DNA of 64,000 nt from an uncultured Candidatus Saccharibacteria bacterium (lineage in GTDB: Bacteria > Patescibacteriota > Minisyncoccia > SW-4-49-11): assembly GCA_964633865.1 (NCBI GenBank), contig CAZWIJ010000003.1, positions 40,656 to 104,655 of the forward strand. The letters are read 5' to 3'. Under the pieces are notes generated by a model. That model made no database searches. It saw nothing but the letters and a program-made list of their open reading frames with translations, and was not told where the DNA came from. The translations under genes were made by a program, and so were the position numbers. This document shows positions 5,387 to 63,080 of this stretch, piece by piece (positions within the stretch are counted from its first letter, which is position 1; every line of letters starts with the position of its first letter).

Positions 5387-8300
5387 TTATTTTTTCTTAT
5401 AAGCCCAGTATAACCAATAAATAGGCATCATAGGATAAAATGTTAGCTTCAAAAACCAATTTAAATCATGGAAATTTTTACTAGACCATCTAAAAAATGT
5501 GAATAAAATTGGAGTTGTTATCAAAGAGATAAATCCTGATGATAATAATCCAAACATTATCACTAAAGATATCGGTCTATAAATTTCAGATAACCAAGCT
5601 AGTGGAGCCAAAGAAGCAATAGCAGTGAACTTAGTCATCAAAACTGGTTTTAGTCTAATTCCTGATGATATTGTGATTGCCTTTACTGGATCTTCACCTT
5701 CTTCTATTCTTTGATTTGCTGAATCAATAAGGAAAATTGCCACATTCTCAACAATACCAACTAAAATTATCATTCCAATTATTTCCAAGAATCCAAATTG
5801 TCCATTACTCAAATGAGCAAGTGCAGGCATAATTCCAATAAATGTAAGTGGTATAGTATAAAGAATAACTAAGGGTTGAGTAAATGAATTAAAGAATAAT
5901 GCCAAAACTATATAGCTTGAGAATATAGCTAATAGAAGTGCTATTGACAATTCACTAAATGACTTCAAGAATCCTGCAGTATCACCTTCACTATAAATCT
6001 CTAGAGAATCTTTATTAAGTTCTAATTCTTTTAGCAGTTTAGCATCATCAGCTTGATATTGCTCTATCAAAGCAGTACCTATTCTACTTGCTATTGCTTG
6101 ATCATTAGTATACTCATTATCTAATTTAGCTTTGATAACACCAATTGTTTGTCCTTTAACTCTTTGGATATTAGATTTTTGAGCTGTTTCTTCAATTGAA
6201 CCAATTTCTGATACTTTAAATCTCTGACCTGATGAATTAAATATATTAATATTATTTAATTCATCAATACTTTTTGGACTAGATTTTTGATCTTCTAAAT
6301 AAATATCTATATCTTTACCTTCAATATCTATATTTGTTACTTTCTGGTCATTATTTAGAACAAAATTTTGTTTAATTGAACTGTTAACTAATGCTGTTGC
6401 TGGAATATTTTGACCCAATAATAAATTTTTTTCTTCCAAAATATTCCTGTCAAATCTAAAGTCTAATATCTTATTATCTTTTCCTGTAAATCCATCATCC
6501 ACTTTCTGAACTAACTTTTTACCATCACTACATTCTTGATCAAATATAATTTTGTCATCTATTAGACAAGCTTTGGCTAATGTTTCACCAATTTCTATAT
6601 TAGATTTTTTAATAATATCTAAATTATTATTCTTAACACTCAGTGATACCTGATAATCACTTGTTGGTGGCCCTTGTGTTATTATGTCAGTAGTATAATC
6701 AAATAGTTTTTCATCAAATTCATCTAAATCTTCTCTTAAATCAGCTATGATTTCTTTTGACGAATATTCTGGCCTTTTATCTTCTGACACAAAATTAATA
6801 TAATATTGAAATGAATTATTGCTTGTTTCAATTGAATAGACATCTTTTACTCCCTTATTCTCTTGGATTTTTGTTAAAATATCTGATAATGTATTTTGTT
6901 TGTCATCAACAGTAAGGTTATTAACAAATGTTCCCGTAACAAAAGCTTCATTACTATTATCTCCTGATGAGAACGAAACTGAAATTATTTGTCTTGTTCC
7001 AAAATAATAGGCAGAGATAGCAATTGGAATAACTAACCCTAATATTATAATTAAAGTCGGTACAATCTTATTACCAGCTAAAATTTTCTGATTTAAATTA
7101 ATTAACCATTTTCCAATTCCCCATAGATTTTCTTCTTCACTTGAAGTTGTATTTTTATTTGGTTTTAAGAATATTCCTCCAAGCCAAGCTAAGAAAACTA
7201 TAGGCACTACATATGAACCAACTACTGCTGGTATAATAGTAAGTGGGATATACTTAAAAATTTGTCCTAATATTCCTGAGATTATTCCAAATGGCAAGAA
7301 TACAATTATATTAGTTAGTGTAGCTAAAAATAATCCCATACCGACATCTTTCACAGCTTCTAGAGATGCTTCTTTACCTCTTAATCCAGTATCTATTTTC
7401 CTTTGAATAGATTCCAAAATAACCAAAGTTGGATCAACAACCAGACCTATCACCAAAACAAGTGAGAACAAAACTAGTGTATTCAAACTTTGTCCAGTAA
7501 AGTAAAGATAAATTGTTGAGAATGATAGTGATAATGGAATAGAAATAGCTGAAATTAATGCAGCTCTCCAAGATACAAAAGCTACCATCACTAAAAATAC
7601 TAATTGAATTCCTCCCAATATCCAACCTAAATTAGAAATAAAAGGATTATCAACATCTAACTTACCTCCAATCAGACCACTTATAACTTCATTTACTTGT
7701 TCTTGATTAGAAGCATTAACTGAATAATTTTCTATAATTTGAACTCTTTCTTTATCAAAAGATTTATCTTGATCTTCATAAGTAATCAAATCTACTCCAT
7801 CATAACTTGATATTTTATCTTTTATTTTTTTATCTAACTTAGAAAGATCTGATCCTTTAACTGATTTTATTGAGAATACTTGACTTTTATTAATAATCGA
7901 ATCTTCACCTTGTCTTATACCAGAATAAGTATTGATATCATTTTCAGTCTTATAAGTTGTTTCCAATTGAGCGAAGTCTTGTAATAAAAGTTTAGTTGGA
8001 ACTGGGGTAGGGATAGGCGATGTAAAAGATAAATTTTTGATGTCATCAAGAGAGGTAGATTCAAGACTAGTCACAATTGATTGAGATTTATCATCAATAT
8101 TAATATCAGAAATCACAGGTAAACTTTCTCCAGTATTTTTTAGTTTAGCAACAATACCATCTACAGAAATCCCATTTTGAGCTAATTTATCTGTATCTAA
8201 TTTTATTACTAATCTTTTCTCTAATGGGATTTCTGCTTCAAATTTAGCTATTTCTGGAAATTCTTTTAAATCTTCTTTTAATTTTTCTGATATATTATAG

Positions 8301-15713: not shown

Positions 15714-17846
15714 TTATTGAGTAAATTTTAATATAAATATATCATATGAACCATTTGTACTTAATGAAACTAAATTTCCATTTATATCATTCCCTAAGCT
15801 CATTAGGTTTGATATAAAATAACCAGATATTATTAAATTATCATAATCATCAATCATAACTAAACTTCCAAAATCATTTCCATTTTGTATTAAACTTTTT
15901 TTTGAATATAATAAACCACCATTTAAATTATACTTTGATATATGGAGCTCTTCACTTTCATTATTATTTAAATTGATTGGATTTCCATTTATATCATTCC
16001 CTAAATTTATAGGATTAGAGCTGAAATATCCTGTAACTATTATATTATTGTCATTATCAATAGCGATGTTATTAATATAATCATTATCATTTCCTCCTGC
16101 ACTCCTTGCCCACAATAATTCTCCATCAATGTTATATTTTGATATATAAAAGTCTTGAATTCCATTATTATTTAGATTTATTGGATTTCCATTTATATCA
16201 TTTCCTAAACTAAGTACATTCGATTGAAAACTACCTGCTACTATTATATTGTTATCATTATCAAGTTTCATATCATTCATATAATCAAATCCTCCCCCTC
16301 CTGCACTCTTTGCCCATAATAGTTCTCCATCAATATTATATTTTGATATATATGTATCTCTACTTCCATTATTACTTAAATTTATTGGGTTTCCATTTAT
16401 ATCATTTCCTAAATTTAGTACATTCGATTGGAAACTACCTGCCACTATTATATTGTTACCATTATCACTTGTTATAGAAAAACCATAATCAGCTAAATTA
16501 CCTCCTGCACTCTTTGCCCATAATAATTCCCCATCAATATTATATTTTGATATAAAAAAGTCTTGACTACCATTATTATTTAAATTTATTGGGTTTCCAT
16601 TTATATCATTTCCTAAACTCATAGGATTAGAGCTGAAATATCCTGTAACTATTATATTATTGTCATTATCACTCGTTATAGAAATACCGTATTCACCTAA
16701 AGTTTCTCCACTACTCTTTGCCCATAATAATTCTCCATCAATATTATATTTTGATATATAAAAGTCTTGACTTCCATTATTATTTAGATTTATTGGATTT
16801 CCATTTATATCACTTCCTAAATTCATTATATTTGAATCAAAATATCCTGTAATTATTATATTATCGTTATTATCACTCGTCACATGACTAACATTATCAA
16901 ATCCACTTCCTCCTGCACTCTTTGCCCATAATAATTCTCCATCAGTGTTATATTTTGATAGATATATATCTCTGTTACCATTATTATTTAAATTGATTGG
17001 ATTTCCATTTATATCACTTCCTAAATTCATTACATTTGAGTCAAAATATCCTGTAATTATTATATTATCATTATTATCACTCGTCACATGACTAACATTA
17101 TCAAATCCACTTCCTCCTGCACTCTTTGCCCAAAGAGTAGTTAGTGAAGGAATATTAACTTGAGTTATACTTCCACTTGCTAGTACATTTTCACCTATCA
17201 CTATTTTTGATACTATCTCTTTTCCTGCATCTGCTGTTTGCACCACATAACTTATCCCTGTTCCTACTTGAGTCTCTATTCCAGCATCCACTGTATACCA
17301 AATTAGACTTTCTTCTGATATATTTAGTCCTGTTGGGAGTGTTACTGTCAATGTCTGTCCTACTTCATTTGTTCCATTTATTACTAAACTTAGTTCTATT
17401 GGATTAATTATTATAAATTCTCCTAATACAGCTTTATCTGCAAATACACTTATTTTATTATTTACATTATTTATACCCGCTTTATATCCTCCTCCTTTTG
17501 GATCTCTTGGTATTTCTGCTATATATGTTGGAACTAACTCTCTCAGATCTATCTTTCCTGTACAATCTGTTGAATCTCCCTCTATCTCTTTTCCTGTATC
17601 ACATATTTCACCGTATAATCCTGTTGCATCATCTATTATATCTTTTGGATATCTTCCATTCGATATATAATATTGATCTAATGCTTTTTGTACTGTATTT
17701 ATTCCTCCCCATCTACTTGCATTCTCTGCTTTTCCTATCTGTCTTAATGGATTTATAGCGACAATAACTATACTTGCTAATATTCCTATTGATGCTATTA
17801 CCAACAATATCTCTAATAATGTAAATCCTTTCTTTTTATTATTCAT
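15714..17846 (-). CDS. type IV pilin-like (prepilin N-terminal cleavage/methylation domain) surface protein with a 7-bladed SBBP-type beta-propeller repeat array
   Basis: The N-terminus KKG|FTLLEILLVIASIGILASIVI is a class III signal with Glu at +5. From about aa 238 there are seven ~68-aa repeats (LWAKSAGG...NIIITGYF...GNDINGNPINLNNNG...ISKYN.DGEL). Confidence 0.7.
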   Translation of the reverse strand: MNNKKKGFTLLEILLVIASIGILASIVIVAINPLRQIGKAENASRWGGINTVQKALDQYYISNGRYPKDIIDDATGLYGEICDTGKEIEGDSTDCTGKIDLRELVPTYIAEIPRDPKGGGYKAGINNVNNKISVFADKAVLGEFIIINPIELSLVINGTNEVGQTLTVTLPTGLNISEESLIWYTVDAGIETQVGTGISYVVQTADAGKEIVSKIVIGENVLASGSITQVNIPSLTTLWAKSAGGSGFDNVSHVTSDNNDNIIITGYFDSNVMNLGSDINGNPINLNNNGNRDIYLSKYNTDGELLWAKSAGGSGFDNVSHVTSDNNDNIIITGYFDSNIMNLGSDINGNPINLNNNGSQDFYISKYNIDGELLWAKSSGETLGEYGISITSDNDNNIIVTGYFSSNPMSLGNDINGNPINLNNNGSQDFFISKYNIDGELLWAKSAGGNLADYGFSITSDNGNNIIVAGSFQSNVLNLGNDINGNPINLSNNGSRDTYISKYNIDGELLWAKSAGGGGFDYMNDMKLDNDNNIIVAGSFQSNVLSLGNDINGNPINLNNNGIQDFYISKYNIDGELLWARSAGGNDNDYINNIAIDNDNNIIVTGYFSSNPINLGNDINGNPINLNNNESEELHISKYNLNGGLLYSKKSLIQNGNDFGSLVMIDDYDNLIISGYFISNLMSLGNDINGNLVSLSTNGSYDIFILKFTQ
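15730..17135. repeat. tandem ~204-bp coding repeats (7 copies) inside the pilin-like gene; the two central copies are nearly identical
   Basis: Stretches around 16861-16960 and 17065-17164 are almost identical (tatcactcgtcacatgactaacattatcaaatccacttcctcctgcactctttgcccat...). The period matches the 68-aa protein repeat. Confidence 0.7.
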
Positions 17847-17922: not shown

Positions 17923-18774
17923 TTATTTTTTACCTAAATACTCGGCTAAGGCTTCTTTCCAGATTCTCATCTTAGTATTTAATTTAGTATTTAATAAAAT
18001 ACTAAATTTAGGTCTTCTAGCTAAAGTTTTATATTCAGATGAACTTATAGGATTTAGTTTTATATCTATATTTTTCAGTCTAAATATCTCTGATGCAAAT
18101 TCATACCAACTTACTGCTCCTTCATTGGATAAATGATAAATTCCCTTACCCAAATTATTGTTAATGATATAATTTGTTCTTTTAGCCACATCTAAGGTAT
18201 AAGTTGGACTTCCTATTTGATCATTAATAATACTAAGTTCAGTTTTATTCTTAGAAAGATGAATCATTGTATCAACAAAATTCTTGCCCCCACTACCATA
18301 TAACCAAGATATTCTAAAAATATAATATACAAAATCTGGATTATTATTAGCAATATCTGAAATATAATTTTCTGCCTTTAACTTTGTTAACCCATAAAAA
18401 TTAACTGGATTTATTGGTATATCAGACTCTTTATATCCATTTTTATTTTCTCCATCAAAAACATAATCTGTAGAATATTGAATAAATTTTATTTTGTTAT
18501 AAGAACAATATTTAGCTAAATTATAAACTCCTAGAGAATTAATTTTCTCCACTTTATTTTGCTCACTAAATTCTTCTGCTTTATCTACTAGAGTATATGC
18601 CGCACAATTTATAACAAAATCCAACTCATATTGAGATAAAAATTGTTCAACATTTTCTTTTGAAGATATATCTAAATTATTTCTATCCGTCAAAATTATT
18701 TCATGATCTAAACTTAATACCTTAGCTAAATCATGAGATAACATTCCCTTAGATCCTGTAATTAAAATTTTCAT
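17923..18774 (-). CDS. rfbD: dTDP-4-dehydrorhamnose reductase
   Basis: Starts MKILITGSKGMLS (Rossmann fold), with a YxxxK catalytic region; 283 aa RmlD-like. Confidence 0.75.
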   Translation of the reverse strand: MKILITGSKGMLSHDLAKVLSLDHEIILTDRNNLDISSKENVEQFLSQYELDFVINCAAYTLVDKAEEFSEQNKVEKINSLGVYNLAKYCSYNKIKFIQYSTDYVFDGENKNGYKESDIPINPVNFYGLTKLKAENYISDIANNNPDFVYYIFRISWLYGSGGKNFVDTMIHLSKNKTELSIINDQIGSPTYTLDVAKRTNYIINNNLGKGIYHLSNEGAVSWYEFASEIFRLKNIDIKLNPISSSEYKTLARRPKFSILLNTKLNTKMRIWKEALAEYLGKK

Positions 18775-18784
18775 AGATTCTAAA

Positions 18785-20038
18785 TTATTTTATACCAAAT
18801 TCTTTTTTGATATTATTAACAAAATCTAACTTTTCCCATGTGAATAATTCAACTTCCAATATTTTTTCCTTTCCTTCAGGAGAAATAAATTTTTTATTCA
18901 CAATTCTACTTTCTCTTCCCATATGACCATAAGATGATGTTTCACTATAAATAGGATTCCTTAATTTTAATCTTTTCTGTATAAAATATGGTCTCATATC
19001 AAAAATCTTTGAGATAATATTAGCTATTTCTCCATCAGACATCTTAACTTTAGCTGTGTTATAAGTATTGATATAAATTCCCATTGGTTCAGAAACTCCA
19101 ATTGCATAAGAAACTTGTACCAAAACCTCATCACATACACCAGCTGCTACCAAATTTTTAGCAATATGACGAGTTGCATAAGCTCCTGATCTGTCCACCT
19201 TACTTGGATCTTTACCAGAGAAAGCTCCTCCTCCATGAGCACCTTTTCCCCCATATGTGTCTACAATAATTTTTCTACCTGTTAAACCAGTATCTCCATG
19301 AGGACCTCCAATTACAAATTTTCCTGTAGGATTTATAAAATATTTAATTTTATTATTAAACAACTTAGAATATTCTGGATACTTAGTTTTTATTCTTGGA
19401 ATTAAAATTTCTAAAATATCTTTCTTGATTTTAGCTAACATTTTTACCTCAGCATCAAAATCATCATGTTGAGTTGAGATTACAATTGTATCTATTCTAA
19501 CTGGTTTATGGTTATCATCATATTCTAAAGTAACTTGTGACTTTGAGTCTGGTCTTAGATATTTGATTTGCTTATTCTCTCTCCTTAGATTAGCTAATTC
19601 TTTTAATATATTGTGAGCAAGATCCAAAGCCAGCGGCATATAATTTTTAGTTTCATTAGTAGCATAACCAAACATCATTCCTTGATCCCCTGCTCCTTGA
19701 TCTTCTTTTTTCTTTTTATCTACTCCTTGATTAATATCTTCTGATTGCTCATGAATTGCTGACAATATTCCACAAGAATTAGCTTCAAACATATATTCTG
19801 AATTTGTATAACCAATTTTTCTAATAACATCTCTTGCAATAAATTGTACATCTAAATAAGTTTTTGATTTCACTTCCCCTGCCAAAACAACTTGACCTGT
19901 GGTCACTAATGTCTCACAAGCAACTTTTGAATTAGGATCAAAAGCTAAAAAATTATCAATGATAGCATCTGAAATTTGATCTGCTATTTTATCTGGGTGT
20001 CCTTCTGAAACTGATTCTGATGTAAATAAATAACTCAT
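18785..20038 (-). CDS. metK: S-adenosylmethionine synthetase
   Basis: Contains [34 protein letters not shown] and [19 protein letters not shown]. Confidence 0.9.
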
Positions 20039-20237
20039 ATTATTAATTTAAAATTAACTTATTAATATTTAGACTATAAATTTTAATTTGAATATACTTT
20101 CTATTTGTAAAATTATATCTAAAATATATTATACTATATTTATATATTTTTATACAGAAAATTACTTTAGAATTATATTTGAATTATAATCATAATTAAG
20201 GTATACTATAGATATTATTAAATAATAATTTAAATTT

Positions 20238-20804
20238 ATGTATCAAGAAAAAAATTTCAATTTAGAATCAGTAGAAGAATTATCCAAAGAACAAATTCAA
20301 GTTCATTTAGGATTATACTCAGGTTATGTCAAAAACACAAATCTTTTATTAGAGCAAATTAAATCTCTAAAATCTAATGACTCAAATCAAGTAATAGTAT
20401 CAGAATTACAAAGAAGATTAGGCTTTGAATTCAATGGAATGAGATTACATGAACTATATTTTGAACAAATCTCAGATGGAGCACAAGATTTAGACTCAAA
20501 CTCAAACCTATATCAGTTAATTAATACTCAATTTGGATCATTAGAAGAATATTTAAAAGATATTAAAAGAATTTCTTCAATGAGAGGAATTGGTTGGGTT
20601 GTTAGTTATTTGTATCAAAATGAAATAATTAATGCTTGGGTATCAGATCACGAGTTAGGACAATTAGCTACACAACCTATATTTGTTTTAGATATGTGGG
20701 AGCATGCATTTATGGTAGATTTCAGACCATCAACTAAAGTGGATTATGTAACAACTTATATTAACAATGTTAATTGGGAAAAAATAGAGAGAAGATTAGT
20801 TTAA
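20238..20804 (+). CDS. Fe/Mn-family superoxide dismutase (divergent, 188 aa)
   Basis: DMWEHAF matches the SOD D-x-W-E-H motif (Asp and His ligands). GIGWVVSY matches FGSGWAWL. His equivalents at QVHL and RLHE and a C-terminal VNW are present. The usual HHxKHH N-terminal motif is reduced to a single His. Confidence 0.6.
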   Translation: MYQEKNFNLESVEELSKEQIQVHLGLYSGYVKNTNLLLEQIKSLKSNDSNQVIVSELQRRLGFEFNGMRLHELYFEQISDGAQDLDSNSNLYQLINTQFGSLEEYLKDIKRISSMRGIGWVVSYLYQNEIINAWVSDHELGQLATQPIFVLDMWEHAFMVDFRPSTKVDYVTTYINNVNWEKIERRLV

Positions 20805-42031: not shown

Positions 42032-42105
42032 GGATGTGTAGCTCAGCTGGTTAGAGCGGGCGTCTTATAAGCGCCAGGTCGGTGGTTCAAGTCCACCCAT
42101 ATCCA
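42032..42105 (+). tRNA. tRNA-Ile with anticodon UAU (tRNA-Ile-GAU-like backbone with G34 replaced by T)
   Basis: GGATGTG-TA-GCTC-AGCTGGTTA-GAGC-G-GGCGT-CTTATAA-GCGCC-AGGTC-GGTGG-TTCAAGT-CCACC-CATATCC-A. The body is nearly identical to bacterial tRNA-Ile(GAU), but the anticodon loop reads CTTATAA. No encoded CCA. Confidence 0.75.
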
Positions 42106-42212
42106 CATTTAATTTTAAATAAAGCAAATCATATATTGAACATGTAACAGGTTATTGATGATATAGAATAAAAACAAATAAAACAATATAAAAAGCCATT
42201 TTAAATTTAAAA

Positions 42213-42262: not shown

Positions 42263-42291
42263 AAATAGAATTTTTTAAAAAAATTCTATTT
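42263..42291. repeat. perfect 29-bp palindrome AAATAGAATTTTTT-A-AAAAAATTCTATTT overlapping the stop codon of the LRR gene
   Basis: Exact self-complementarity seen directly. Either a symmetric bidirectional terminator or a dimeric protein-binding site. Confidence 0.5.
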
Positions 42292-44539
42292 AACTTCTAA
42301 TTTCATCTGAAAGATTTAAATTATTTACTTCTTCTTCAATGTTTTTATTAAGATCAATATAAACACCTATTAAGCAATTTTCTAACAACTTATCTAAATT
42401 TTTTGCTATTTTGAGTCCCCTTAACTTTAAATGTCTTCCTATTTCTTTTGGTAATTTTAGATTCTCTATTGTCTCTAATTTATTTAAATTAAGACTTCCT
42501 CCTATCTTCTCTGGTAATTTGAGATTATCGGCTGTCTTTAATGCATTCAAACCAAGACTTCCTCCTATCTTCTCTGGCAATTTGAGATTATCGGCTGTCT
42601 TTAGTACATTCAAACCAAGGTTTCCTACTATTTCCTTTGGTAATTCTAAATTATCAGCTGTCTTTAATCCATTTAAATTAAGATTTCCTATTATCTTCTC
42701 TGGTAATTTGAGATTATCGGTTGTCTTTAACCTATCTAAATTAAGATTTCCTACTATTTCCTTTGGTAATTCTAAATTCTCGACTGTTTCTAATCTATCT
42801 AAATAAAGATATCCTCCTATTTCCTTTGGTAATTCTAAATTATTGATTCTTTCTAATCCACTCAAATCAAGATATCCTCCTATTTTCTCTGGTAATTTTA
42901 AATCATCAGCTTTTTCTAATCCACTTAAATTAAGATGTCCTCCTATTTTCTCTGGTAATTCTAAATAATAGGCTTCATATAATCCACTTAAATCAAGACC
43001 TCCTCCTATTTTCTCTGGTAATTCTAAATAATAGGCTTCATATAATCCACTTAAATTAAGATTTCCTACTATTTCCTTTGGTAATTCTAAATTATCGGCT
43101 GTCTTTAATCCATCTAAATTAAGATTTCCTCTTATTATATCTGGTAGTTTTAAATTTTCTGCTGTTTTTAGATAACCTAAATCAATATCTCCGTAATGAT
43201 AACCTATATCTCCAGATAAAGCTTCTTCTTGTGTTAAACTTATTTTATCTGCTGTTGTATCTAATATAAATGCTAAATCTTCTTTTACATCTCTTCCTCT
43301 CTTTACCTTTTCTAATCTTGGATCTTGATTATATCCAAAACTTATAAATTCCTCTTCTAATTCCCAACTCAATATTAAATCTTCTTTATTTAGTTCTTCT
43401 TTATTCTCTATTTTATCTAATATTTCTGTTAATCTCTTTGCATTCTCATCTTTCTTTTTGTATTCTTCTGCTTTATCTCCAAATTCTTCTAGCTTTTCAC
43501 TCAATATATTTGTTCCTGCTATATATTCATCCATATTTTGTTCTTCTGCTATTCCTCTTATCTCTACTATTTCTTCTCCTTCCATCCTGATTGTGATTCT
43601 TGGATTTTCTATTTGTCCATTCTTGTTTTTGCTATAATATATATAAAAGTCTCCCATTTCTAAATAGCTTTCTGCTGTTGATTCACTTGCTATACACCAT
43701 CCTGTATTTCTTCCTTCTAATGTCTTTGTTACTTCTTTTGGTTCACTTCCTTTCTCATATCTTATCCATTCTCCTTCTGTTATTGATAATTCTGTATTGC
43801 CTTCTACTTCTGCATTTTTTAAGGCTTTTGCATATAATTCTCCAAAGTCTGCTTTCTTGATTAATTTTTCCAATTCTTCATCTTCTCCTACTTCTATCTT
43901 ATTTTCTTCTACATATTTTATTATTCCATCTACTGCATAGGCTAATGCTTCTCTATTTAATTCTGGGTATGGGGCTACTGTTCCTTTACTTCTTTTTCCA
44001 AATTTAAATGTTTCTTTATCATATTTAGATAATTTTAACATTCCTTGGAACATCCAATACTTTGCCCACATTGGATAATGGCTTGTATCACTGCTTATTA
44101 GATAATCTGCCCATTTACCTAAACTTTTTTCTTGATCTTTGGCTATAGTTCCTATTGATCCTTCTTTCATTCCTGACCTTTCTATATCTTTTTCTGTATA
44201 TTCTCTCTCAAAAAACTCTCCTAGCTCTCCTCCTTGTCCTCTCTCTATTGCTTGTTTTCTTTGCACATTAAAGTAACTTAATGGTATTTCTTCTGCTTCC
44301 ATTACATGATCTTTGTATAGATATCTTCTCTTTACTCTTTCTTTTAACTCTTCATTCTCTTCCATTCTAGCATTATCTCTTTCTAATTTCCTTAGCCAAT
44401 TTCCTAGCTTTTCTACTGGTTTTTGACTTACTTTCTCTCCTCTTTCTTTTGTTCTCTTAGTTTCTGCTTCTACTTCTTCACTTATATGTAAGTTTCCGAA
44501 TTTTTTCTTTATAAATTCTGCTCCTTTCTTCTCTTCCAT
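42290..44539 (-). CDS. leucine-rich repeat (LRR) protein: ~450-aa charged N-terminal region of unknown function plus ~13 tandem 22-aa LRRs
   Basis: C-terminal repeats with consensus L-N-L-x-G-L-K-T-A-D-N-L-K-L-P-E-K-I-G-G-x (22 aa), encoded by 66-bp tandem DNA repeats. The coding strand is extremely purine-rich (E/K-rich protein). No recognisable domain in the N-terminal part. Confidence 0.7.
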   Translation of the reverse strand: MEEKKGAEFIKKKFGNLHISEEVEAETKRTKERGEKVSQKPVEKLGNWLRKLERDNARMEENEELKERVKRRYLYKDHVMEAEEIPLSYFNVQRKQAIERGQGGELGEFFEREYTEKDIERSGMKEGSIGTIAKDQEKSLGKWADYLISSDTSHYPMWAKYWMFQGMLKLSKYDKETFKFGKRSKGTVAPYPELNREALAYAVDGIIKYVEENKIEVGEDEELEKLIKKADFGELYAKALKNAEVEGNTELSITEGEWIRYEKGSEPKEVTKTLEGRNTGWCIASESTAESYLEMGDFYIYYSKNKNGQIENPRITIRMEGEEIVEIRGIAEEQNMDEYIAGTNILSEKLEEFGDKAEEYKKKDENAKRLTEILDKIENKEELNKEDLILSWELEEEFISFGYNQDPRLEKVKRGRDVKEDLAFILDTTADKISLTQEEALSGDIGYHYGDIDLGYLKTAENLKLPDIIRGNLNLDGLKTADNLELPKEIVGNLNLSGLYEAYYLELPEKIGGGLDLSGLYEAYYLELPEKIGGHLNLSGLEKADDLKLPEKIGGYLDLSGLERINNLELPKEIGGYLYLDRLETVENLELPKEIVGNLNLDRLKTTDNLKLPEKIIGNLNLNGLKTADNLELPKEIVGNLGLNVLKTADNLKLPEKIGGSLGLNALKTADNLKLPEKIGGSLNLNKLETIENLKLPKEIGRHLKLRGLKIAKNLDKLLENCLIGVYIDLNKNIEEEVNNLNLSDEIRS
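42400..43200. repeat. tandem 66-bp coding repeats (~12-13 copies) of the LRR gene, including two adjacent near-identical copies around 42950-43080
   Basis: Repeated ...ctctggtaattctaaat...ccacttaaattaagatttcctcctattttctctggtaattc... units are visible directly. The antisense ORF 42411-42806 is a mirror artefact of this array. Confidence 0.75.
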
Positions 44540-56060: not shown

Positions 56061-56837
56061 TTATATCACTGTTTTATTGGCGGTAAATACTATAATAATA
56101 ATGATTATTACAAATATAACCGTCCTTGTTAATAACTCCATTAAAGATATTTTTTTTAAATAAATATCCTTACAACTTATTATACTAAAAATTACAAAAA
56201 TATTCAACAAAATTGATAAAGTTAAATGAGAATAAGGCATTAATCTCAACACTACAAATAATTGCATTGTTATAAACGAAATAAAAAGAGATAAAATAAA
56301 ATTCTTTTTCATGTTATACATATGAAAAAAGAACATAAATATATTAGTATTATATATAAAACAAATTATAGCAAGATGAAAAGAATTCAAATTATTAACA
56401 AAAATAGAACCAAACAAATATGAATAAAATATAAAGTTAGATAATACAATATTAGATAATATAATTTCTTTACTAAACTCAAACTTAACAAATTCTTTAA
56501 ATGATATAACTTCTTGAATTATAAACATACTAATAGTTAAAAAAAGAATAACTAACCATGATGGAATTGTATTCCCAGCTGTTACCTTCAGAAACAAAAC
56601 TGACCCTAAAAAGAAACTTACTGGTATCTGATACAAACTAAATGTTTTTTGAAATGTGTATATGAAATAACCAAAAAACAGAATTACCCAAATTAAATTT
56701 GAAAAACTTAATAAAATAAAACTATTTTGTTTTATTAAATACAAATAGTATGGAAATATTATTATAAAAAAAATAATATTCCAAAAACTTTTTTCTTTTA
56801 GTATTGAAATAACAATTTGATTGTATTTATTTGACAC
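56061..56837 (-). CDS. hypothetical polytopic membrane protein (258 aa, ~8 TM)
   Basis: Hydrophobic ORF between the DksA-like gene and a GT2 gene; no motif recognised. Confidence 0.45.
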   Translation of the reverse strand: MSNKYNQIVISILKEKSFWNIIFFIIIFPYYLYLIKQNSFILLSFSNLIWVILFFGYFIYTFQKTFSLYQIPVSFFLGSVLFLKVTAGNTIPSWLVILFLTISMFIIQEVISFKEFVKFEFSKEIILSNIVLSNFIFYSYLFGSIFVNNLNSFHLAIICFIYNTNIFMFFFHMYNMKKNFILSLFISFITMQLFVVLRLMPYSHLTLSILLNIFVIFSIISCKDIYLKKISLMELLTRTVIFVIIIIIIVFTANKTVI

Positions 56838-56897
56838 TGAACAATTATTTTAGATGAATATATACATATTATAAACTATAATTAAGCTAAATAAAAG

Positions 56898-57779
56898 CTA
56901 TTTTTTCTTATTTTTAATTTTATATTTGTTTTTAGTATTTTTACTAGATTTATTAGAAGTATTAGAATGTGTTTTATCAGATTTTTTATTAAATATTTCT
57001 ATCTCAGAATACTTTATTGCTGTTAAATTTGAAACTAAATTTTCTTCATAATTTTGTGATGTATCCCTTTTATAATAACCTATTCTAATTCTATAAAAAA
57101 TAGCCATTACATCAACTAATACATTTATAACTGCTTTTGGATTAATACTTGATGATATATCATTATACATCATACGAACTGGAACCTCTGTAATTCTATA
57201 TCTATATTGTTTTGCTATTGCTAATAATTCAATATCAAAAGCAAATCTTTTTACTAACATTTTTTGCATTATAAATTGAATCTTATCAGTCTTAAATCCT
57301 TTAATACCAACTTGAGTATCACTCACTCCTAGATTAAATAAAGTCTTTGTTAATAATTGACCTGAAAGACTTAAAAACCTTCTTTGCCAAGGATATCTTA
57401 ATCTTGAAGCTCTATTTCTTTTTGACCCAATAACAATTGGGAACACTGTTACTTTTAGTGTATAAAAAATTAAAAGAATATTATCTATAGGAAAATCCAT
57501 TCCAGCATCAAAAAATACTGTATAATTTCCTTTTGCCTTAGTCACTCCAAATTTTAAAGCATAACCTTTACCTTGATTGGGATTATAAAAATAAATTTTA
57601 GTAAAATCATTGCCTAAGTTTTTTGCTACTTTCCAAGTATCCTCACAACCATCTACTATAACTATAATTTCTGTTTTATATATCCATTTTTCAAAATATT
57701 TTTGTAACTGTTCTATTGTATTCTGTATATTCTTTTGCTCTTTATAAGCTGGAACAATTATACTCAATTCTGGATTCAT
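56898..57779 (-). CDS. glycosyltransferase family 2 (dolichyl/polyprenyl-phosphate sugar synthase-like)
   Basis: Starts LSIIVPAYKEQKNIQNTIEQL, with a DGCED DxD-like region; 293 aa with a basic K-rich tail. Confidence 0.8.
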   Translation of the reverse strand: MNPELSIIVPAYKEQKNIQNTIEQLQKYFEKWIYKTEIIVIVDGCEDTWKVAKNLGNDFTKIYFYNPNQGKGYALKFGVTKAKGNYTVFFDAGMDFPIDNILLIFYTLKVTVFPIVIGSKRNRASRLRYPWQRRFLSLSGQLLTKTLFNLGVSDTQVGIKGFKTDKIQFIMQKMLVKRFAFDIELLAIAKQYRYRITEVPVRMMYNDISSSINPKAVINVLVDVMAIFYRIRIGYYKRDTSQNYEENLVSNLTAIKYSEIEIFNKKSDKTHSNTSNKSSKNTKNKYKIKNKKK

Positions 57780-58035
57780 AACTAATTTAATTAATAATAA
57801 AATTAATGACTTTTACCTATTGTACTTTAAATTTACTATATTTGTCAAATTATTTCTTTATATTTATTAAAAACATATGTGTAACTCATATAAAACTATT
57901 TATTCACTAGCTTTTGCAACCTCAAATGTCTAATATATATTGACATTATAAAAAAATATGTTAACATTAATTAGCACTTTATAAAATAAATTGAGTGAAT
58001 TTTTATGGACATGAATAAGTATTCCTCGATTACTC

Positions 58036-60804
58036 TTGAACTTATTCAGGTTCAACCCGAATGCTAAAGTTCTAATAATTGTGGGTGTAAGATCTAATCT
58101 TCTTACTCAAAATCTAAAAATTATCAGAAATCAATTTGATAATCAAGGATTAAGATCCGTATCTACGGGTATAATGAAATCCGATACCAATTACACCATT
58201 AATTTAGTGACTTGGCAAGGTTTAAATTCTTTATACAAAAAAGATTTAATACAAGATTATTGGTTTGATCTCGTGGTTGTAGATGAATTTCATAATGCTG
58301 GCACAAATCGCCGATTAGAAATTCTATCAAGCTTGAAAAAGACTAATGTTGTTGGTATGTCCGCAACTCCAGTCAGAGCAGGTGGATTATATTTAAATCC
58401 TGAAGACTATGGATTTAAACTAATTTATCAACACTCTTATGCTGATTGTATTAAAAGAGGTTTACTTACTCCTTTGTTCATTCAGGCTCGAGATACAGGA
58501 ATAACCTTATCTCCAAGAGTGGAAAGTAAGGATGGAGATTTAATCTCATATATTGTCAACAAAGAAGTTGCTGATAGTGGGATTATTTCTAGAATTTCTA
58601 AAGATCTTTTGAAAGAAGATTTACTTTTACAGGGAATAAAAACTCTGGTAATTGTTAATTCAAAAAAAGAAGCTATAGCGGTAAAAGAAATTCTTATTAA
58701 GAAATTTAAGACTGAAGTTTATATTTCTCATTTTTATTCTGAAGAAGAAGATAAAGAAATTTTGAGAAAATATGCTCTTCCAAAAGAGAATATTGAATCT
58801 TTGCAGATTTTAGTTTCTGTAAATCGGCTAATTGAAGGTTATGATAATCCTTTGATTCAAGCAGAAATCTGGATTAGTCCTACTAAGTCTAGTGTTAGAT
58901 TCTGTCAATACTTGGGAAGAGTATCAAGAAAAGCTCCTGGAAAAAATTTTAGTATCTTGATTGAATACCAATATCATATATTGGGTTCATCCTTACCTTA
59001 CAACTATACTAAATTTTTTAGTGAAGAAGAGTTAGAATGGGTAAATAATAATTGGGTCGCTATATGCCCCCAAAATAAATTAGAGAATTTATCTGAATTA
59101 GATGGAATTCTCAATAATTATAAAAGTATTTTCCCTGCCTTCACAAGAAATAGAAGTAAAGGAGATTATCCTCAAAATAAAGATTATTCAGTTATTCCAA
59201 ATACTTGGTATAGTATGGCTGGTATGACTTCTATCTTTGGACAAGGTGCCTCAGTAAAAGAAACTATTACAAATCTGTCTTCTCAATCTGAATTTCAAGA
59301 TAAATTTAAATTTGGTAAAAAAGCAGGACCTGGTAGTGGAATACCAACTATTTATTATTCTCCTGACTTTGTTCACAGATTATTAGAATTAGGTTTAACA
59401 ATTCAGATTCCCAGAGGCTGGTTTGATAAAGAATTTTTGAATGATCACTTTGATATCAAAGATTTAAGTGTGATCAAGGTTATGAATTTACTTTATGCAG
59501 AGTCTACTGAAGATCTTTACCTAAAGATTTTAGATCAAGGTTTGTATTCTAAAAAATTCATCCAAAGAATGCTTAATCTTTTACCAGTTAGTAAAATCAA
59601 GAATTTTTTTACTCAAAGAGAAATTTTTGAAATGGCATTAGAATTTGAGATGATCTCTATCTCGAGAGAATTCCTTGAAAAAGCAATCAATCTTAATCCT
59701 AATTTATGCTTCAAGAAATTTATTAACGGAAAAGAGGTGGATATTTTTCTTCAAGAAATTCTAAGGAAAGTTGAAAATCTTTTATTCAAAGCTAATTATA
59801 ATTTACTTATGATTAGTAATGAAATGATGAATAACCAAGATCTTTATGGAGGTATTTATTTAAGAGAAGAGCCAGAACCTTGGGAATGGACTTGGAAAGA
59901 AAACATTCCTAAATGGACTTGGGAAGATGAATTGGAATTTGATACAGAAATGTATGATTATTTTTATGAAGACATCTATGATCATCATTCTTTCAATCCT
60001 CCTGTCTTTGATTCAAAAGCTAAGTCAAAACCAGATTCAGAATTAGTCATTGCTAAGTCCATTGAGGGTTTTGATATCTTTTATAATGGTTTAGGTAAAT
60101 TAGTTTTTCCAGAATATTTTGAGTCTGGAAATTATGATTTGGACTTAGAAGAAAAACAAGATTTAGAAGAATTTAAGGAAAAAGTTTTAGAATATTTTTG
60201 TAAGCAACATACAGTGAATAATGCTGTTAGTACTTTAATTAAGTTATTACAAAAATATCCTCACTTAAAATCTTTTACTTGTGTTTTGAGTGAAGAAAAT
60301 ATTATTAATTTGAATACAAAATTAGTAGACGAGAATTTCTTAAATATTTCTATCAAGGATATTCCCATTTATAATATTCCTTTAAAATCTTCTTTGTCCG
60401 AAATAATTAATCCCAATATCTATAAAATTTATCATATCATATTATCTTTGGATACTTGGTCTGAATATATTATAGATACTAGTTTTGGTAAGATTTATCC
60501 CAAATGGTTGATTGAAATTATTAATGTAATTTATAAATTAACCATACTTGCTATCAAACATGGTTTTTATGATATTAAGAAAGTTAATAGAATAAGACCT
60601 ATTAAAACATATAAAAGCCACGAAAAAATTTATAAGGAGTTTTTTAATGAAAAAATTTATCAAAAAATTTCTTATACTAATAGCTGGAATACTAGAAAAA
60701 AGGAATGTTATTATGTTGATAGACAAGATGATTTACAAGAATTAATTTATTATATTCCAAATGAATTAATCTTAGGGAATTATATTCTTAAGAAAAAAGA
60801 CTAA
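58036..60804 (+). CDS. SF2 helicase-like protein lacking Walker A (motif I), fused to a ~600-aa C-terminal region of unknown function
   Basis: DEFH box VVVDEFHN (motif II), SAT-like GMSATP (III), helicase-C motifs VSVNRLIEGYDNP (V) and FCQYLGRVSRKA (VI). Only TTG at 58036 is available as a start; an in-frame TGA at 58012 excludes an upstream Walker A. The C-terminal 600 aa are W/Y-rich with no recognisable motif. Confidence 0.55.
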   Translation: MNLFRFNPNAKVLIIVGVRSNLLTQNLKIIRNQFDNQGLRSVSTGIMKSDTNYTINLVTWQGLNSLYKKDLIQDYWFDLVVVDEFHNAGTNRRLEILSSLKKTNVVGMSATPVRAGGLYLNPEDYGFKLIYQHSYADCIKRGLLTPLFIQARDTGITLSPRVESKDGDLISYIVNKEVADSGIISRISKDLLKEDLLLQGIKTLVIVNSKKEAIAVKEILIKKFKTEVYISHFYSEEEDKEILRKYALPKENIESLQILVSVNRLIEGYDNPLIQAEIWISPTKSSVRFCQYLGRVSRKAPGKNFSILIEYQYHILGSSLPYNYTKFFSEEELEWVNNNWVAICPQNKLENLSELDGILNNYKSIFPAFTRNRSKGDYPQNKDYSVIPNTWYSMAGMTSIFGQGASVKETITNLSSQSEFQDKFKFGKKAGPGSGIPTIYYSPDFVHRLLELGLTIQIPRGWFDKEFLNDHFDIKDLSVIKVMNLLYAESTEDLYLKILDQGLYSKKFIQRMLNLLPVSKIKNFFTQREIFEMALEFEMISISREFLEKAINLNPNLCFKKFINGKEVDIFLQEILRKVENLLFKANYNLLMISNEMMNNQDLYGGIYLREEPEPWEWTWKENIPKWTWEDELEFDTEMYDYFYEDIYDHHSFNPPVFDSKAKSKPDSELVIAKSIEGFDIFYNGLGKLVFPEYFESGNYDLDLEEKQDLEEFKEKVLEYFCKQHTVNNAVSTLIKLLQKYPHLKSFTCVLSEENIINLNTKLVDENFLNISIKDIPIYNIPLKSSLSEIINPNIYKIYHIILSLDTWSEYIIDTSFGKIYPKWLIEIINVIYKLTILAIKHGFYDIKKVNRIRPIKTYKSHEKIYKEFFNEKIYQKISYTNSWNTRKKECYYVDRQDDLQELIYYIPNELILGNYILKKKD

Positions 60805-60914
60805 TCTTTAATCAAAATTTATAAGCCTATTTAACTATAGGCTTTTCTTTTTTTAAAAGCTTTAGATTAAACTCTATTGACTGAAATACTATTTGATAGT
60901 ATTATATATTTATT

Positions 60915-60990
60915 CGGGGTGTGGCGCAGTGGCTAGCGCACCTGGTTTGGGACCAGGGGGTCGCAGGTTCAAATCCTGTCTCCCCGACCA
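60915..60990 (+). tRNA. tRNA-Pro (anticodon UGG), CCA encoded
   Basis: CGGGGTG...acceptor, anticodon stem CCTGG/CCAGG with loop TTTGGGA (TGG), T-arm GCAGG-TTCAAAT-CCTGT, discriminator A, then CCA. Confidence 0.85.
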
Positions 60991-60998
60991 CAACAAAT

Positions 60999-61033
60999 AA
61001 AAATAGATTGTAAATTTATACAATCTATTTTTT
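60999..61033 (+). terminator. Rho-independent terminator (perfect 14-bp stem AAAAATAGATTGTA/TACAATCTATTTTT with a 6-nt loop, then a T-run) directly 3' of tRNA-Pro
   Basis: Perfect inverted repeat seen directly; the T-run is contiguous with the 3' arm. Confidence 0.55.
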
Positions 61034-61042
61034 AATATTCAA

Positions 61043-61267
61043 CTACAATTTAAATTTGGATTCTTCAATTCTATCAACAAATAAAACTATCTTTATTATC
61101 CATAAACAACTAATAAAGTGAACCCAAAACAAAATTAAATATACACCCGACAAAATAATATCCTTAATATGATAATTTATTAATGCTATTATAAATGTAA
61201 CTAGTATTATTAATAAAAATAATGCCGTTGTTAATAATATATTTCTCAATGTTAATTGTATTAACAT
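61043..61267 (-). CDS. hypothetical small membrane protein (74 aa, 2 TM)
   Basis: Short hydrophobic ORF downstream of the ABC-F gene; may not be coding. Confidence 0.3.
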   Translation of the reverse strand: MLIQLTLRNILLTTALFLLIILVTFIIALINYHIKDIILSGVYLILFWVHFISCLWIIKIVLFVDRIEESKFKL

Positions 61268-61343: not shown

Positions 61344-63080
61344 TTAAATCTTTGATTGTAGCTCATCTAAATAATTAGCAACCCTAACCCACATTTCTTC
61401 TTGTTTCATAAGTTCTAAACTAGCATTTGTATTAACTAAAATATCTTCTTTTTTAATTTTTGAAATTTTTCTCTCAATACTTTGTAATTCTTTTTTGACT
61501 TTATAAATCTCTTTTTGTAATTCTTTATTTTTACTAACATTTTTTACTTCGATATTCTGTTCTTTTACTTTTTCAGAATGATCTATATTTAACCTTTGGT
61601 CTAGGTTATATAAATATTCATTATATTTACCAGGATATTTACTAAATTTACCATCCCTCACTTCCCAAATAACATTAGCTAGAATATTAACAAAAGTTCT
61701 ATCATGAGAAACAAAAATCACAGTTCCATTGAACTCTTGTAAGGATCTAGCCATTATCTCAACTGTATCTACATCAAGATGGTTAGTAGGTTCATCTAAA
61801 ATCAAAACATCATAACTTCCTAAAAAAACACTAGCTAAATTTAATCGAGATTTTTCTCCTCCAGACAATACTCCAATCAACTTAGTCCAATCTTCTTTTT
61901 TGAAAAGGAAACTTCCCAAAGTAGATTTAACTTGTTCATCAGTAATCTCAAAAGCAATTTTTTGCCTAAAATAATCATAAATATTCACTTCATAAGGTAA
62001 TTCCTGTTCTATATGTTGCCCAAAATATCCAACATTCAAAGAATCTGTCCATTTGAATTTACCATCCAAAACCTCTAAATAGCCAGCAAGAGTCTTTAGT
62101 AAAGTAGACTTACCTTGTCCATTATCTCCAAGTACAGCTATTTTTTCCCCACGATTTATATCCAAATTAATTTCATCTGAAATAACTTTATTCTTATAAC
62201 CAATAGCCAAATTTTCTACTCTTAAAGCTAAACCATTTTTTGTAAAAACCTTAGGAATAAACATTCTGACTTTTGTATTAGAAACATAAACCTTGCTCTT
62301 TTCTTGTTCAAGTCTTTCTATATTTTTTTCTTTAGATTTGGCTTGCTTAGCTTTACTTGCCTTTGCACCAAATCTATCTACAAAACTTTGTAATTGAGCT
62401 TGCTTTTTATCAATATTTTGATTAACCTTGAGATTATGCTCTCTTTCTAACTCTTTTTTAGATAAATAAGTATCAAGATCTCCTTCAAAAGTCTTAATTT
62501 GCCCTTGCTCCACTTCCATAATAGCAGTTGAAACTTGCCTAATGAATTCTCTATCATGAGTAATCAAAAGAATAGTACCTTTAAAACTTTTAATCCAATT
62601 TTCTAAAAGTAAAATAGTAGACAAATCAAGATAATTAGTTGGTTCATCAAGTAAAATCAAGTTAGGATTAAGTAAGATCATAGACAAAATCTTTACTCTC
62701 ATCCTAAAGCCACCAGACAAAGATAATACTTCTTTATCAACCAAATCTTGAATTTGAAACTGATTAACTTGTTTTTTTATTTCCCAATCTGGAACTTTTG
62801 TCCACCTTAATAGAAAATCTAAGACTGAATCACCCTCTATAAAAGGATCTTCTTGAGGAATAAAACCTATCTTAGCAAAATTAGCTAAATTAATAACTCC
62901 ATCATCTTGTTCTTCCTTTCCTAATATAATTTTAAATAAAGTTGACTTCCCAGCACCATTAGCTCCAATAACTCCATATATATTATTTTCTAAAATAGAG
63001 GCATTAGCTTCATGAAAAATTTCTTTATTCCCATACATTTTATGTAAATTTTCAATGTGTATAATCTCTCTTTTCGCCAT
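61344..63080 (-). CDS. ABC-F family ATPase (two ABC domains, EttA/Uup-like)
   Basis: Walker A motifs GANGAGKSTLFK and GDNGQGKSTLLK, signature motifs LSGGFRMR and LSGGEKSR, an inter-domain linker and a charged C-terminal coiled-coil. 578 aa. Confidence 0.85.
   Translation of the reverse strand: MAKREIIHIENLHKMYGNKEIFHEANASILENNIYGVIGANGAGKSTLFKIILGKEEQDDGVINLANFAKIGFIPQEDPFIEGDSVLDFLLRWTKVPDWEIKKQVNQFQIQDLVDKEVLSLSGGFRMRVKILSMILLNPNLILLDEPTNYLDLSTILLLENWIKSFKGTILLITHDREFIRQVSTAIMEVEQGQIKTFEGDLDTYLSKKELEREHNLKVNQNIDKKQAQLQSFVDRFGAKASKAKQAKSKEKNIERLEQEKSKVYVSNTKVRMFIPKVFTKNGLALRVENLAIGYKNKVISDEINLDINRGEKIAVLGDNGQGKSTLLKTLAGYLEVLDGKFKWTDSLNVGYFGQHIEQELPYEVNIYDYFRQKIAFEITDEQVKSTLGSFLFKKEDWTKLIGVLSGGEKSRLNLASVFLGSYDVLILDEPTNHLDVDTVEIMARSLQEFNGTVIFVSHDRTFVNILANVIWEVRDGKFSKYPGKYNEYLYNLDQRLNIDHSEKVKEQNIEVKNVSKNKELQKEIYKVKKELQSIERKISKIKKEDILVNTNASLELMKQEEMWVRVANYLDELQSKI

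Follow-up and report, generated by a model that had tools for sequence, protein, structure and literature searches.

A helicase-like gene upstream of tRNA-Pro

The window that we analyzed is a stretch of 64,000 nucleotides (contig CAZWIJ010000003.1 of assembly GCA_964633865.1, positions 40,656 to 104,655) from an uncultured Candidatus Saccharibacteria bacterium whose genome has a GC content of 28%. On its forward strand, just upstream of a tRNA-Pro gene, lies a long open reading frame (ORF) encoding a helicase-like protein from which the Walker A motif (motif I, or P-loop) is missing. The parts of this ORF and its neighbors are listed in Table 1. The ORF is a real gene and not the product of chance, since the other five frames of the same interval hold between 64 and 123 stop codons each. 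Its frame is closed upstream by a TGA (58012-58014) and, before that, by an in-frame TAA at 57982, and it offers only two possible starts, TTG 58036 and the GTG 58081 chosen by public gene calls, which yields a protein of 907 aa. The first in-frame ATG is codon 47. Either start is atypical for a genome in which most genes begin with ATG: an ATG combined with an A/T-rich leader was found for 42 of the 49 ORFs listed (each counted from the first start codon after a stop, so that non-ATG entries among them may be mis-set), and the leader of the helicase ORF is less A/T-rich than usual. Shine-Dalgarno sequences within 20 nt upstream were found for 2 of the 49. A 20-codon ORF in the neighboring frame, which begins with ATG, does have the A/T-rich leader usual for the genes of this genome; it could be the actual site of ribosome initiation, an upstream ORF or a chance occurrence.

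Table 1. Coordinates of the helicase-like ORF, its predicted parts and the flanking features within the window
Feature	Coordinates	Strand	Remarks
GT2 glycosyltransferase	56898-57779	-	Divergent, upstream of the helicase ORF
Promoter-like site (TTGACA, 16-nt spacer, extended TG, TAACAT)	57940-57967	+	10/12 matches, 69 nt 5' of the TTG
20-codon ATG ORF (MDMNKYSSITLELIQVQPEC)	58005-58067	+	Neighboring frame, overlaps the start of the helicase ORF
Remnant of helix α-1 and motif Ia strand/helix (RLLLNLFRFNPNAKVLIIVGVRSNLLTQ)	58027-58110	+	Family homology starts here
Helicase-like ORF	58036-60804	+	922 aa from TTG 58036, TAA stop, 2,769 nt
Family-homologous region: both RecA domains and post-helicase segment (aa ~10-385)	58063-59190	+	phmmer E=1e-46 to 1e-32
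Motif II (Walker B), D83-E84-F85-H86	58282-58293	+	Invariant in 46 aligned sequences
Motif III, S109-A110-T111	58360-58368	+	A110 and T111 invariant
Motif VI, Q291-Y-L-G294-R295-V-S-R298 (arginine fingers)	58906-58929	+	In the second RecA domain, aa ~195-315; Q291, G294, R295 and R298 invariant
Degenerate copy of the ~60-aa 'GDWLT...(H)YPPE' repeat (NTWYSMAGMTSIFGQGASVKETI...GIPTIYYSPDFVHRLLEL), aa 388-456	59197-59403	+	Weak but consistent
Helical region without detectable relatives, aa 457-598	59404-59829	+	
Acidic Trp/Tyr-rich stretch (EPEPWEWTWKENIPKWTWEDELEFDTEMYDYFYEDIYD), aa ~600-700	59833-60135	+	E 16%, D 11%; no regular structure, pLDDT 27-35
Ile/Lys/Asn/Tyr-rich, mostly helical orphan tail, aa 701-922	60136-60801	+	pLDDT <50 for most
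Intrinsic-terminator-like hairpin and T-run	60823-60855 (hairpin 60823-60844)	+	Ends the helicase gene
Promoter-like site of tRNA-Pro	60877-60905	+	
tRNA-Pro(TGG)	60915-60990	+	Neighbor, 110 nt downstream, outside the helicase gene
Hairpin, then T-run, of tRNA-Pro	60999-61032	+	
ABC-F ATPase	61344-63080	-	Downstream of the helicase ORF

The helicase core is complete except for its N terminus

The protein contains the core of a superfamily 2 (SF2) helicase of the DExH, ResIII/Helicase_C type, in which the first RecA domain (RecA1) is incomplete. The Pfam ResIII model matches aa 3-114 with 35.7 bits (cut-off 22.5), but it does so only over profile positions 47-164 of 164, whereas related proteins match it from position 3-8 onward. 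Helicase_C scores 22.9 bits on aa 197-299, just under its cut-off of 23.5, and a phrog_16 DNA helicase match was found with E=2.7e-27. An AlphaFold2 model based on a multiple sequence alignment gives aa 1-355 a predicted local distance difference test (pLDDT) score of 85-95, and a Foldseek search with the modeled core returned RadD, XPB and LlaBIII with E=1e-12 to 1e-10. Besides the motifs in Table 1, motif V and an EG.D.P segment are also present.

No Walker A motif was found in the 922 aa when they were searched with the regular expressions G.GK[GST], GK[ST] and [AG]xxxxGK[ST]. In these respects, an earlier note on this DNA described the gene well: the ORF with its TTG start and closing TGA, the helicase motifs II, III and VI (which we place as DEFH at aa 83-86, SAT at aa 109-111 and Q..GR..R at aa 291-298), and the missing Walker A all stand. 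It went too far, however, in stating that motif Ia could not be present. The strand and helix of this motif are found at aa 11-25, where KVLIIVGVRSNLLTQ aligns with the family consensus KILLIVGTKNILLDQ, and all 42 aligned sequences share G17, L22 and Q25. What is missing is motif I together with the residues before it, and nothing else; the loss amounts to the first ~60-70 codons.

The parent family is intact and consists of solitary helicases

An exhaustive phmmer search of 1.84 billion representative sequences yielded 3,365 matches. If a fragment of the protein itself is disregarded, the top matches (P0010-P0022) share 29-34% identity with it at the E-values given in Table 1. Residues 3-12 of our protein align with aa 66-76 of these relatives, and homology stops near its aa 350-385. 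A profile search with an alignment (A1) in a word-indexed database returned the protein itself only. The relatives (P0010-P0051) form a family of solitary helicases of 600-900 aa from bacteria of the candidate phyla radiation (CPR), which appears to be uncharacterized. The matches listed for GTDB are from metagenome-assembled genomes of Candidatus Daviesbacteria and Levyibacteriota, in which the ORFs (762 and 595 aa) are full length and have GIGKT or GIGKG as their P-loop; an example is the 762-aa ORF of Candidatus Daviesbacteria GW2011_GWA1_41_61 (LCBT01000004.1).

We aligned the protein with 41 relatives (42 sequences in all), and every one of the 41 displays a G-[FIYLV]-G-K-[GST] motif 19-29 residues before the motif Ia strand, a place where our protein has 12 residues. 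The relatives have 71-336 residues before this strand in 40 of 41 cases and 27 in the remaining one (P0031), which is probably a partial sequence. A conserved N terminus of ~55 aa, with the pattern 'G.TG....DG.L....Q' ('GVTG..DGVL..RQ'), precedes the P-loop in all 41 and is absent from our protein. The earlier note had proposed looking for intact relatives, and these are what we found: Walker A and the conserved N terminus are present throughout. In its full-length form, a member of the family consists of this N terminus, a P-loop of the form P/A-T-G-x-G-K-[GST], two RecA domains and a C-terminal array of ~60-aa helix-turn-helix-like repeats.

To judge from its core sequence, our protein is a member of this family. 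It shares with P0010-P0051 motifs Ia, II, III, V and VI and the state of a solitary chromosomal gene, as well as residues that are specific to the family (TWQG, DE.HN.GT..R, P..YGF, KT..VN and W..PT.S.R..Q.GR..R) and the segment that follows the helicase domains (..Y.IE.YGYS.NFAQFF..L..G..Y.GP). It differs from the family in lacking the conserved N terminus and Walker A. A second difference concerns the C terminus, where relatives have three to eight clear repeats and our protein has at most one, degenerate, followed by ~460 aa of orphan sequence.

The repeats of the relatives, which are ~55-60 aa long, are of at least three kinds. The first is the 'GDWLT...HYPPE' repeat, with weak helix-turn-helix matches; the second corresponds to Pfam HNH_repeat (PF18780; E=4e-30 in P0011); and the third, 'EHPEYF...VT.EGR..FI', is found in Daviesbacteria (L014, ORF 5683-7971). 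The C-terminal arrays presumably bind DNA, and the variety of their repeats suggests swappable DNA-binding modules on one helicase chassis.

The truncation is real, and the lost piece is not found nearby

The interval 57701-61100 of the window recurs with 100% identity in eight contigs, which come from separate ENA assemblies, and because these independent contigs agree, an assembly error is excluded. The protein sequence is identical in all members of the cluster, and no protein was found between 34% and 100% identity. The truncated form has been seen in one clonal population only, which answers in the negative the point, raised in the earlier note, of whether this architecture is conserved. 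One member of the public cluster, encoded on an ENA contig, is an 841-aa protein (P0007) of which 704 aa are identical to ours, followed by an unrelated sequence rich in Arg, Gly, Ala and Lys. This is probably the chimeric end of a contig; the unrelated tail may be that of a ribosomal protein.

The same set of assemblies bears on whether a full-length gene is hidden here by an artefact of assembly, sequencing or genetic code. The scarcity of TGA as a stop (1 of 43 ORFs) could speak for a reassigned codon. Against this, the eight assemblies are identical, and reading TGA as a sense codon (code 4 or 25) was rejected since no real gene of the window has an internal TGA. Reading through TGA 58012 would add 15 codons before a TAA and does not yield a G-x-G-K. 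We regard an artefact of any of these kinds as so improbable as to be negligible. Stop codon usage in this genome is 37 TAA, 5 TAG and 1 TGA for the 43 ORFs.

The missing N terminus could instead lie elsewhere, either in a shifted frame or in a separate gene. A tblastn search with full-length homologues (P0002 and P0003) against 56801-58400 and the whole window matched nothing upstream of 58063. A hidden Markov model (HMM) of the family N terminus, run on six frames of the window and of L001, a sequence that reaches ~10 kb past it, retrieved only the P-loop of guanylate kinase and noise. The frameshifted N terminus, upstream exon or alternative start for which the earlier note had advised a search is thus found neither in 56800-58036 nor in the rest of the window. 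We also considered that the gene might be split, with its N-terminal ~70 aa (β-1, P-loop and α-1) encoded elsewhere and an active ATPase formed in trans. Such an arrangement would fit the full preservation of motifs II, III and VI and of the RecA1 core residues, and our search for a separate piece covered ~74 kb of the genome. Yet the N-terminal HMM retrieved no candidate from the six frames of either the window or L001, and homology continues in frame up to the TGA, leaving no clean rearrangement junction. Moreover, we know of no SF2 helicase in which RecA1 is split between β-1 and β-2. A split gene is, in our view, quite improbable.

That homology continues beyond the TTG was seen when the HMM of the N-termini was run on 57780-58140 with stops read as X. 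The match (14.2 bits, E=6.5e-06 over three frames) begins at an Arg codon at 58027, three codons 5' of TTG 58036, and the ancestral frame therefore continues up to TGA 58012. When this register is extended without gaps, keeping the spacing seen in group 1 of the relatives, the P-loop would fall at 58009-58026, where T-*-I-S-I-P stands opposite T-G-x-G-K-G and the TGA lies on the first Gly. We do not claim that Walker A decayed in place here. A position-specific scoring matrix in this fixed register gave p=0.06, or p=0.11 when the last three residues were left out, and we treat in-place decay as a lead, not a finding.

The Walker A motif was probably lost late

Over the core, the protein shares 30% identity with group 1 of its relatives and 27% with group 2, compared with 41% between the two groups and ~56% within each. 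The protein is thus at the end of a long branch. Within the span of our protein, nonetheless, 48 of the 72 family positions that are conserved at ≥90% are identical, and 22 of the first 25 conserved positions, those of RecA1, are kept, the three changes there being conservative (K>R, L>I and T>S). The DExH, SAT and Q..GR..R motifs are all kept. Because residues that serve only ATP hydrolysis would not be expected to outlast a long history without ATP, the P-loop was probably lost late on this branch. Of the 8,298 possible single substitutions in the ORF, 516 (6.2%) create a stop, and we calculated that a neutral ORF would remain open with a probability of ≥5% only up to ~0.017 substitutions per site. 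Therefore, unless the loss is very recent, the ORF is under selection.

We propose that the ORF is a 5'-truncated copy of a gene of the CPR family of solitary SF2 helicases (RadD/XPB-like, DExH). The loss of ~60-70 codons removes the central β-1 strand and the P-loop of RecA1. In the ASCE/RecA fold (additional strand, conserved glutamate), β-1 is in the middle of the sheet, and native folding of the domain without it would be unlikely. Lacking both this strand and the P-loop lysine, the protein would not bind and hydrolyze ATP as a helicase does. Since nearly all other conserved residues of RecA1 and all catalytic motifs are intact and the 922 codons are open at 28% GC, the loss is most likely recent, and decay may not yet have begun. 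With moderate confidence, we read the gene as a young, 5'-truncated and ATPase-dead remnant or pseudogene. The proportion of GC at third codon positions (GC3), which is 0.20 in the ORF, 0.158 ± 0.024 in neighboring genes and, for comparison, close to the intergenic GC of 0.21, is weakly compatible with relaxed codon selection.

Several observations weigh against a remnant. No internal stops or frameshifts were found in the ORF, which stays open for 2.77 kb, compared with a stop every ~10-14 codons in random frames of this genome, and in each third of it GC content falls from the first to the second to the third codon position. The gene has kept a promoter-like site and a terminator of its own. 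Streamlined genomes usually delete dead DNA. The search for a separate N-terminal piece had the extent given above. Neither variation within the population nor a close sister sequence, either of which could reveal purifying selection, was found, and the very long branch may just as well be the outcome of prolonged evolution under a new constraint that does not depend on ATP.

Some of these points also favor the main rival to a remnant, namely, that the gene is expressed from TTG or GTG as a P-loop-less 'pseudo-helicase', which would bind DNA or act as a scaffold independently of ATP through its second RecA domain, the repeat and the tail. For such a protein, one would cite the 922 open codons with coding periodicity in every segment, the promoter-like site and terminator, a long branch compatible with a shift in constraint, and the large, unique C-terminal region, which suggests lineage-specific elaboration. 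If 58009-58026 were a P-loop decayed in place, the upstream sequence would have drifted while the ORF stayed open, implying selection; the alignment behind this argument is, however, not significant (p=0.06-0.11). Other evidence is harder to reconcile with it. The DExH and SAT motifs, the arginine fingers and the RecA1 positions would not be expected to persist through long evolution without ATP binding, and the loss of β-1 should, from what is known of the fold, destabilize the first domain. In addition, the truncated form is limited to one clonal population, and the start codon is atypical for the genome. We hold an expressed pseudo-helicase to be possible but doubtful. Taken in a slightly different form, as either a selected pseudo-helicase that uses its Trp/Tyr-rich 460-aa tail or a protein completed in trans by a separate P-loop peptide, a functional product seems unlikely to us. 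The earlier note had left the choice between a decayed helicase and a non-ATPase scaffold. Both readings are still alive, the decayed helicase being favored; its framing as a restriction-Res gene is not supported.

The C-terminal region is largely an orphan sequence

The C-terminal extension of ~600 aa had been described as unrecognizable, which is accurate for aa ~457-922 but not for what precedes them. Family homology extends to aa ~350-385, and aa 388-456 would correspond to a single degenerate copy of the first kind of family repeat. When compared with the full family repeat, this segment gives P=0.003 with hhalign and E=0.015-0.04 with hmmsearch. MAFFT places it in register at the point where the arrays of the relatives begin, and in the alignment-based AlphaFold2 model it forms three helices followed by a hairpin and a further helix (pLDDT 73-85). 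No further copies of the repeat were detected in the protein, and BLAST of the protein against itself revealed no internal repeats.

The remainder, aa 457-922, is an orphan sequence that is predicted, at low confidence, to be mostly helical. It has no significant match in Pfam, PDB or phmmer searches. A word-index search with aa 457-922 also gave no match, but it is uninformative since it missed even the protein's own cluster. DUF3391, which appears for the C-terminal region when Pfam is searched at E≤10, was dismissed as noise (13-15 bits against a cut-off of 27.8). A single-sequence AlphaFold2 model of the C-terminal region has a pLDDT of 35. Within the acidic stretch, the DNA contains two copies, 94% identical and spaced 27 nt, of a 16-nt unit (59885-59900 and 59912-59927) that encodes the duplicated motif WTWKE/WTWED.

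Likeness to restriction and repair enzymes is that of a generic core

Among proteins of known structure, the core is most similar to RadD, an SF2 DNA repair helicase of Escherichia coli (PDB 8h5y, 7r7j and 6jde), with a Foldseek E=6.5e-12 over 340 columns at 20% identity. In sequence, this likeness is faint: phmmer gives E=1e-03, and the NCBIfam RadD model (NF053632) 29 bits, below its equivalog cut-off of 720. In contrast to RadD, our protein lacks the P-loop, and its C-terminal region is unmatched. RadD is followed in the Foldseek ranking by the type ISP enzyme LlaBIII, XPB and SauUSI. The structure of SauUSI (7clg; PMC7913695) is the best PDB match by sequence (E=1.3e-09, aa 72-311 of our protein, 22-25% identity). 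Our protein differs from SauUSI by the absence of the PLD nuclease, the DUF3427/SRA-like target-recognition domain and Walker A. Likewise, while ResIII (PF04851), a Pfam model that covers generic DExH RecA1 domains, matches above its gathering score, a type III Res subunit would have an endonuclease motif and an adjacent Mod methyltransferase, neither of which is present here. PADLOC reports mREase_IV (E=4e-14) and PbeA (E=5e-14), and NCBIfam dnd_restrict_1 scores 42 bits against a cut-off of 600. The matches to SauUSI, RadD and the PADLOC and NCBIfam models reflect the likeness of a generic DExH core. A viral origin was rejected as well: the relatives present in IMG/VR are generic phage helicases that share 21-29% identity with the protein, and the phmmer E-values place the bacterial (CPR) family far closer.

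These matches could nonetheless mark the gene as the remnant of a restriction or defence system, of type III Res or type IV SauUSI-like kind, in an island linked to a tRNA. The tRNA-Pro 110 nt downstream and a toxin-antitoxin cluster 5-8 kb further on in L001 would fit such an island, and the earlier note had seen in this context a place where defence or mobile remnants accumulate. The evidence does not support it. No nuclease family was found in Pfam or NCBIfam at E≤10 with the whole protein or its C-terminal halves; there is no match to DUF3427 and no Mod or other methyltransferase gene adjoining ours. The closest relatives, which are much closer (E=1e-46) than these restriction enzymes, consist of a helicase and repeats, again without nuclease, methyltransferase or DUF3427. 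Around the gene, only short AT-rich direct or inverted repeats expected by chance and no integrase were found. The gene precedes the tRNA rather than adjoining its 3' end, and its GC content matches that of neighboring genes and the host.

The relatives' own surroundings point the same way, since they stand alone amid housekeeping genes. We located them at L010 4181-6133, L014 5683-7971, L013 3638-6298, L061 220-2130 and L009 2900-5551. Twice they lie between fusA and tuf (L010 and, on the opposite strand, in the Daviesbacteria locus L014); one adjoins a peptide chain release factor gene and rplA/rplJ/rplL, and two adjoin the gene of a ~487-aa sigma factor of the sigma-70 family. Further relatives are found among miscellaneous genes, and none of the neighborhoods examined contains a recurring nuclease or methyltransferase partner. 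A defence remnant is, on this evidence, very improbable.

Genomic surroundings

The flanking genes are those named in the earlier note, with a GT2 (family 2) glycosyltransferase upstream and, downstream, tRNA-Pro, a strong terminator and an ABC-F gene. Other neighbors encode a membrane protein and, on the opposite strand downstream, a 74-aa membrane protein. The promoter-like site of the helicase ORF is weak evidence, as 24 ± 6 such sites are expected by chance in this AT-rich region.

The toxin-antitoxin or defence-type gene cluster of L001 is at 18009-20802, ~2-5 kb past the right end of the window. It comprises an AAA_14/DUF4143 ATPase, a DUF6922 protein with an AbiEii-like nucleotidyltransferase, and a PIN-domain protein. 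The cluster does not adjoin the helicase ORF, and an 818-aa protein is encoded between it and the ABC-F gene.

Elsewhere in the window, a tRNA-Ile with the anticodon TAT (UAU) is found at 42032-42106. This tRNA is uncommon in bacteria, which usually read AUA with a lysidine-modified CAU tRNA. Two large proteins are encoded on the reverse strand, one of 710 aa (15714-17846) with a type IV pilin-like N-terminal methylation motif and one of 749 aa (42290-44539) with a weak match to leucine-rich repeats.

What the truncated gene means

The result is mainly one of clean-up. What looked like a helicase without Walker A is a truncated copy from an otherwise intact family, and it does not represent a new defence or restriction module. 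As such, the finding is fairly ordinary. What interest is left comes from the parent family and from the slight possibility that the truncated protein has a function. Should this protein be expressed and selected, it would offer an uncommon example of a RecA-fold domain that works with neither its central strand nor a P-loop. More interest may attach to the parent family, whose members combine one helicase with interchangeable repeat arrays and are repeatedly found beside core genes of translation and transcription.

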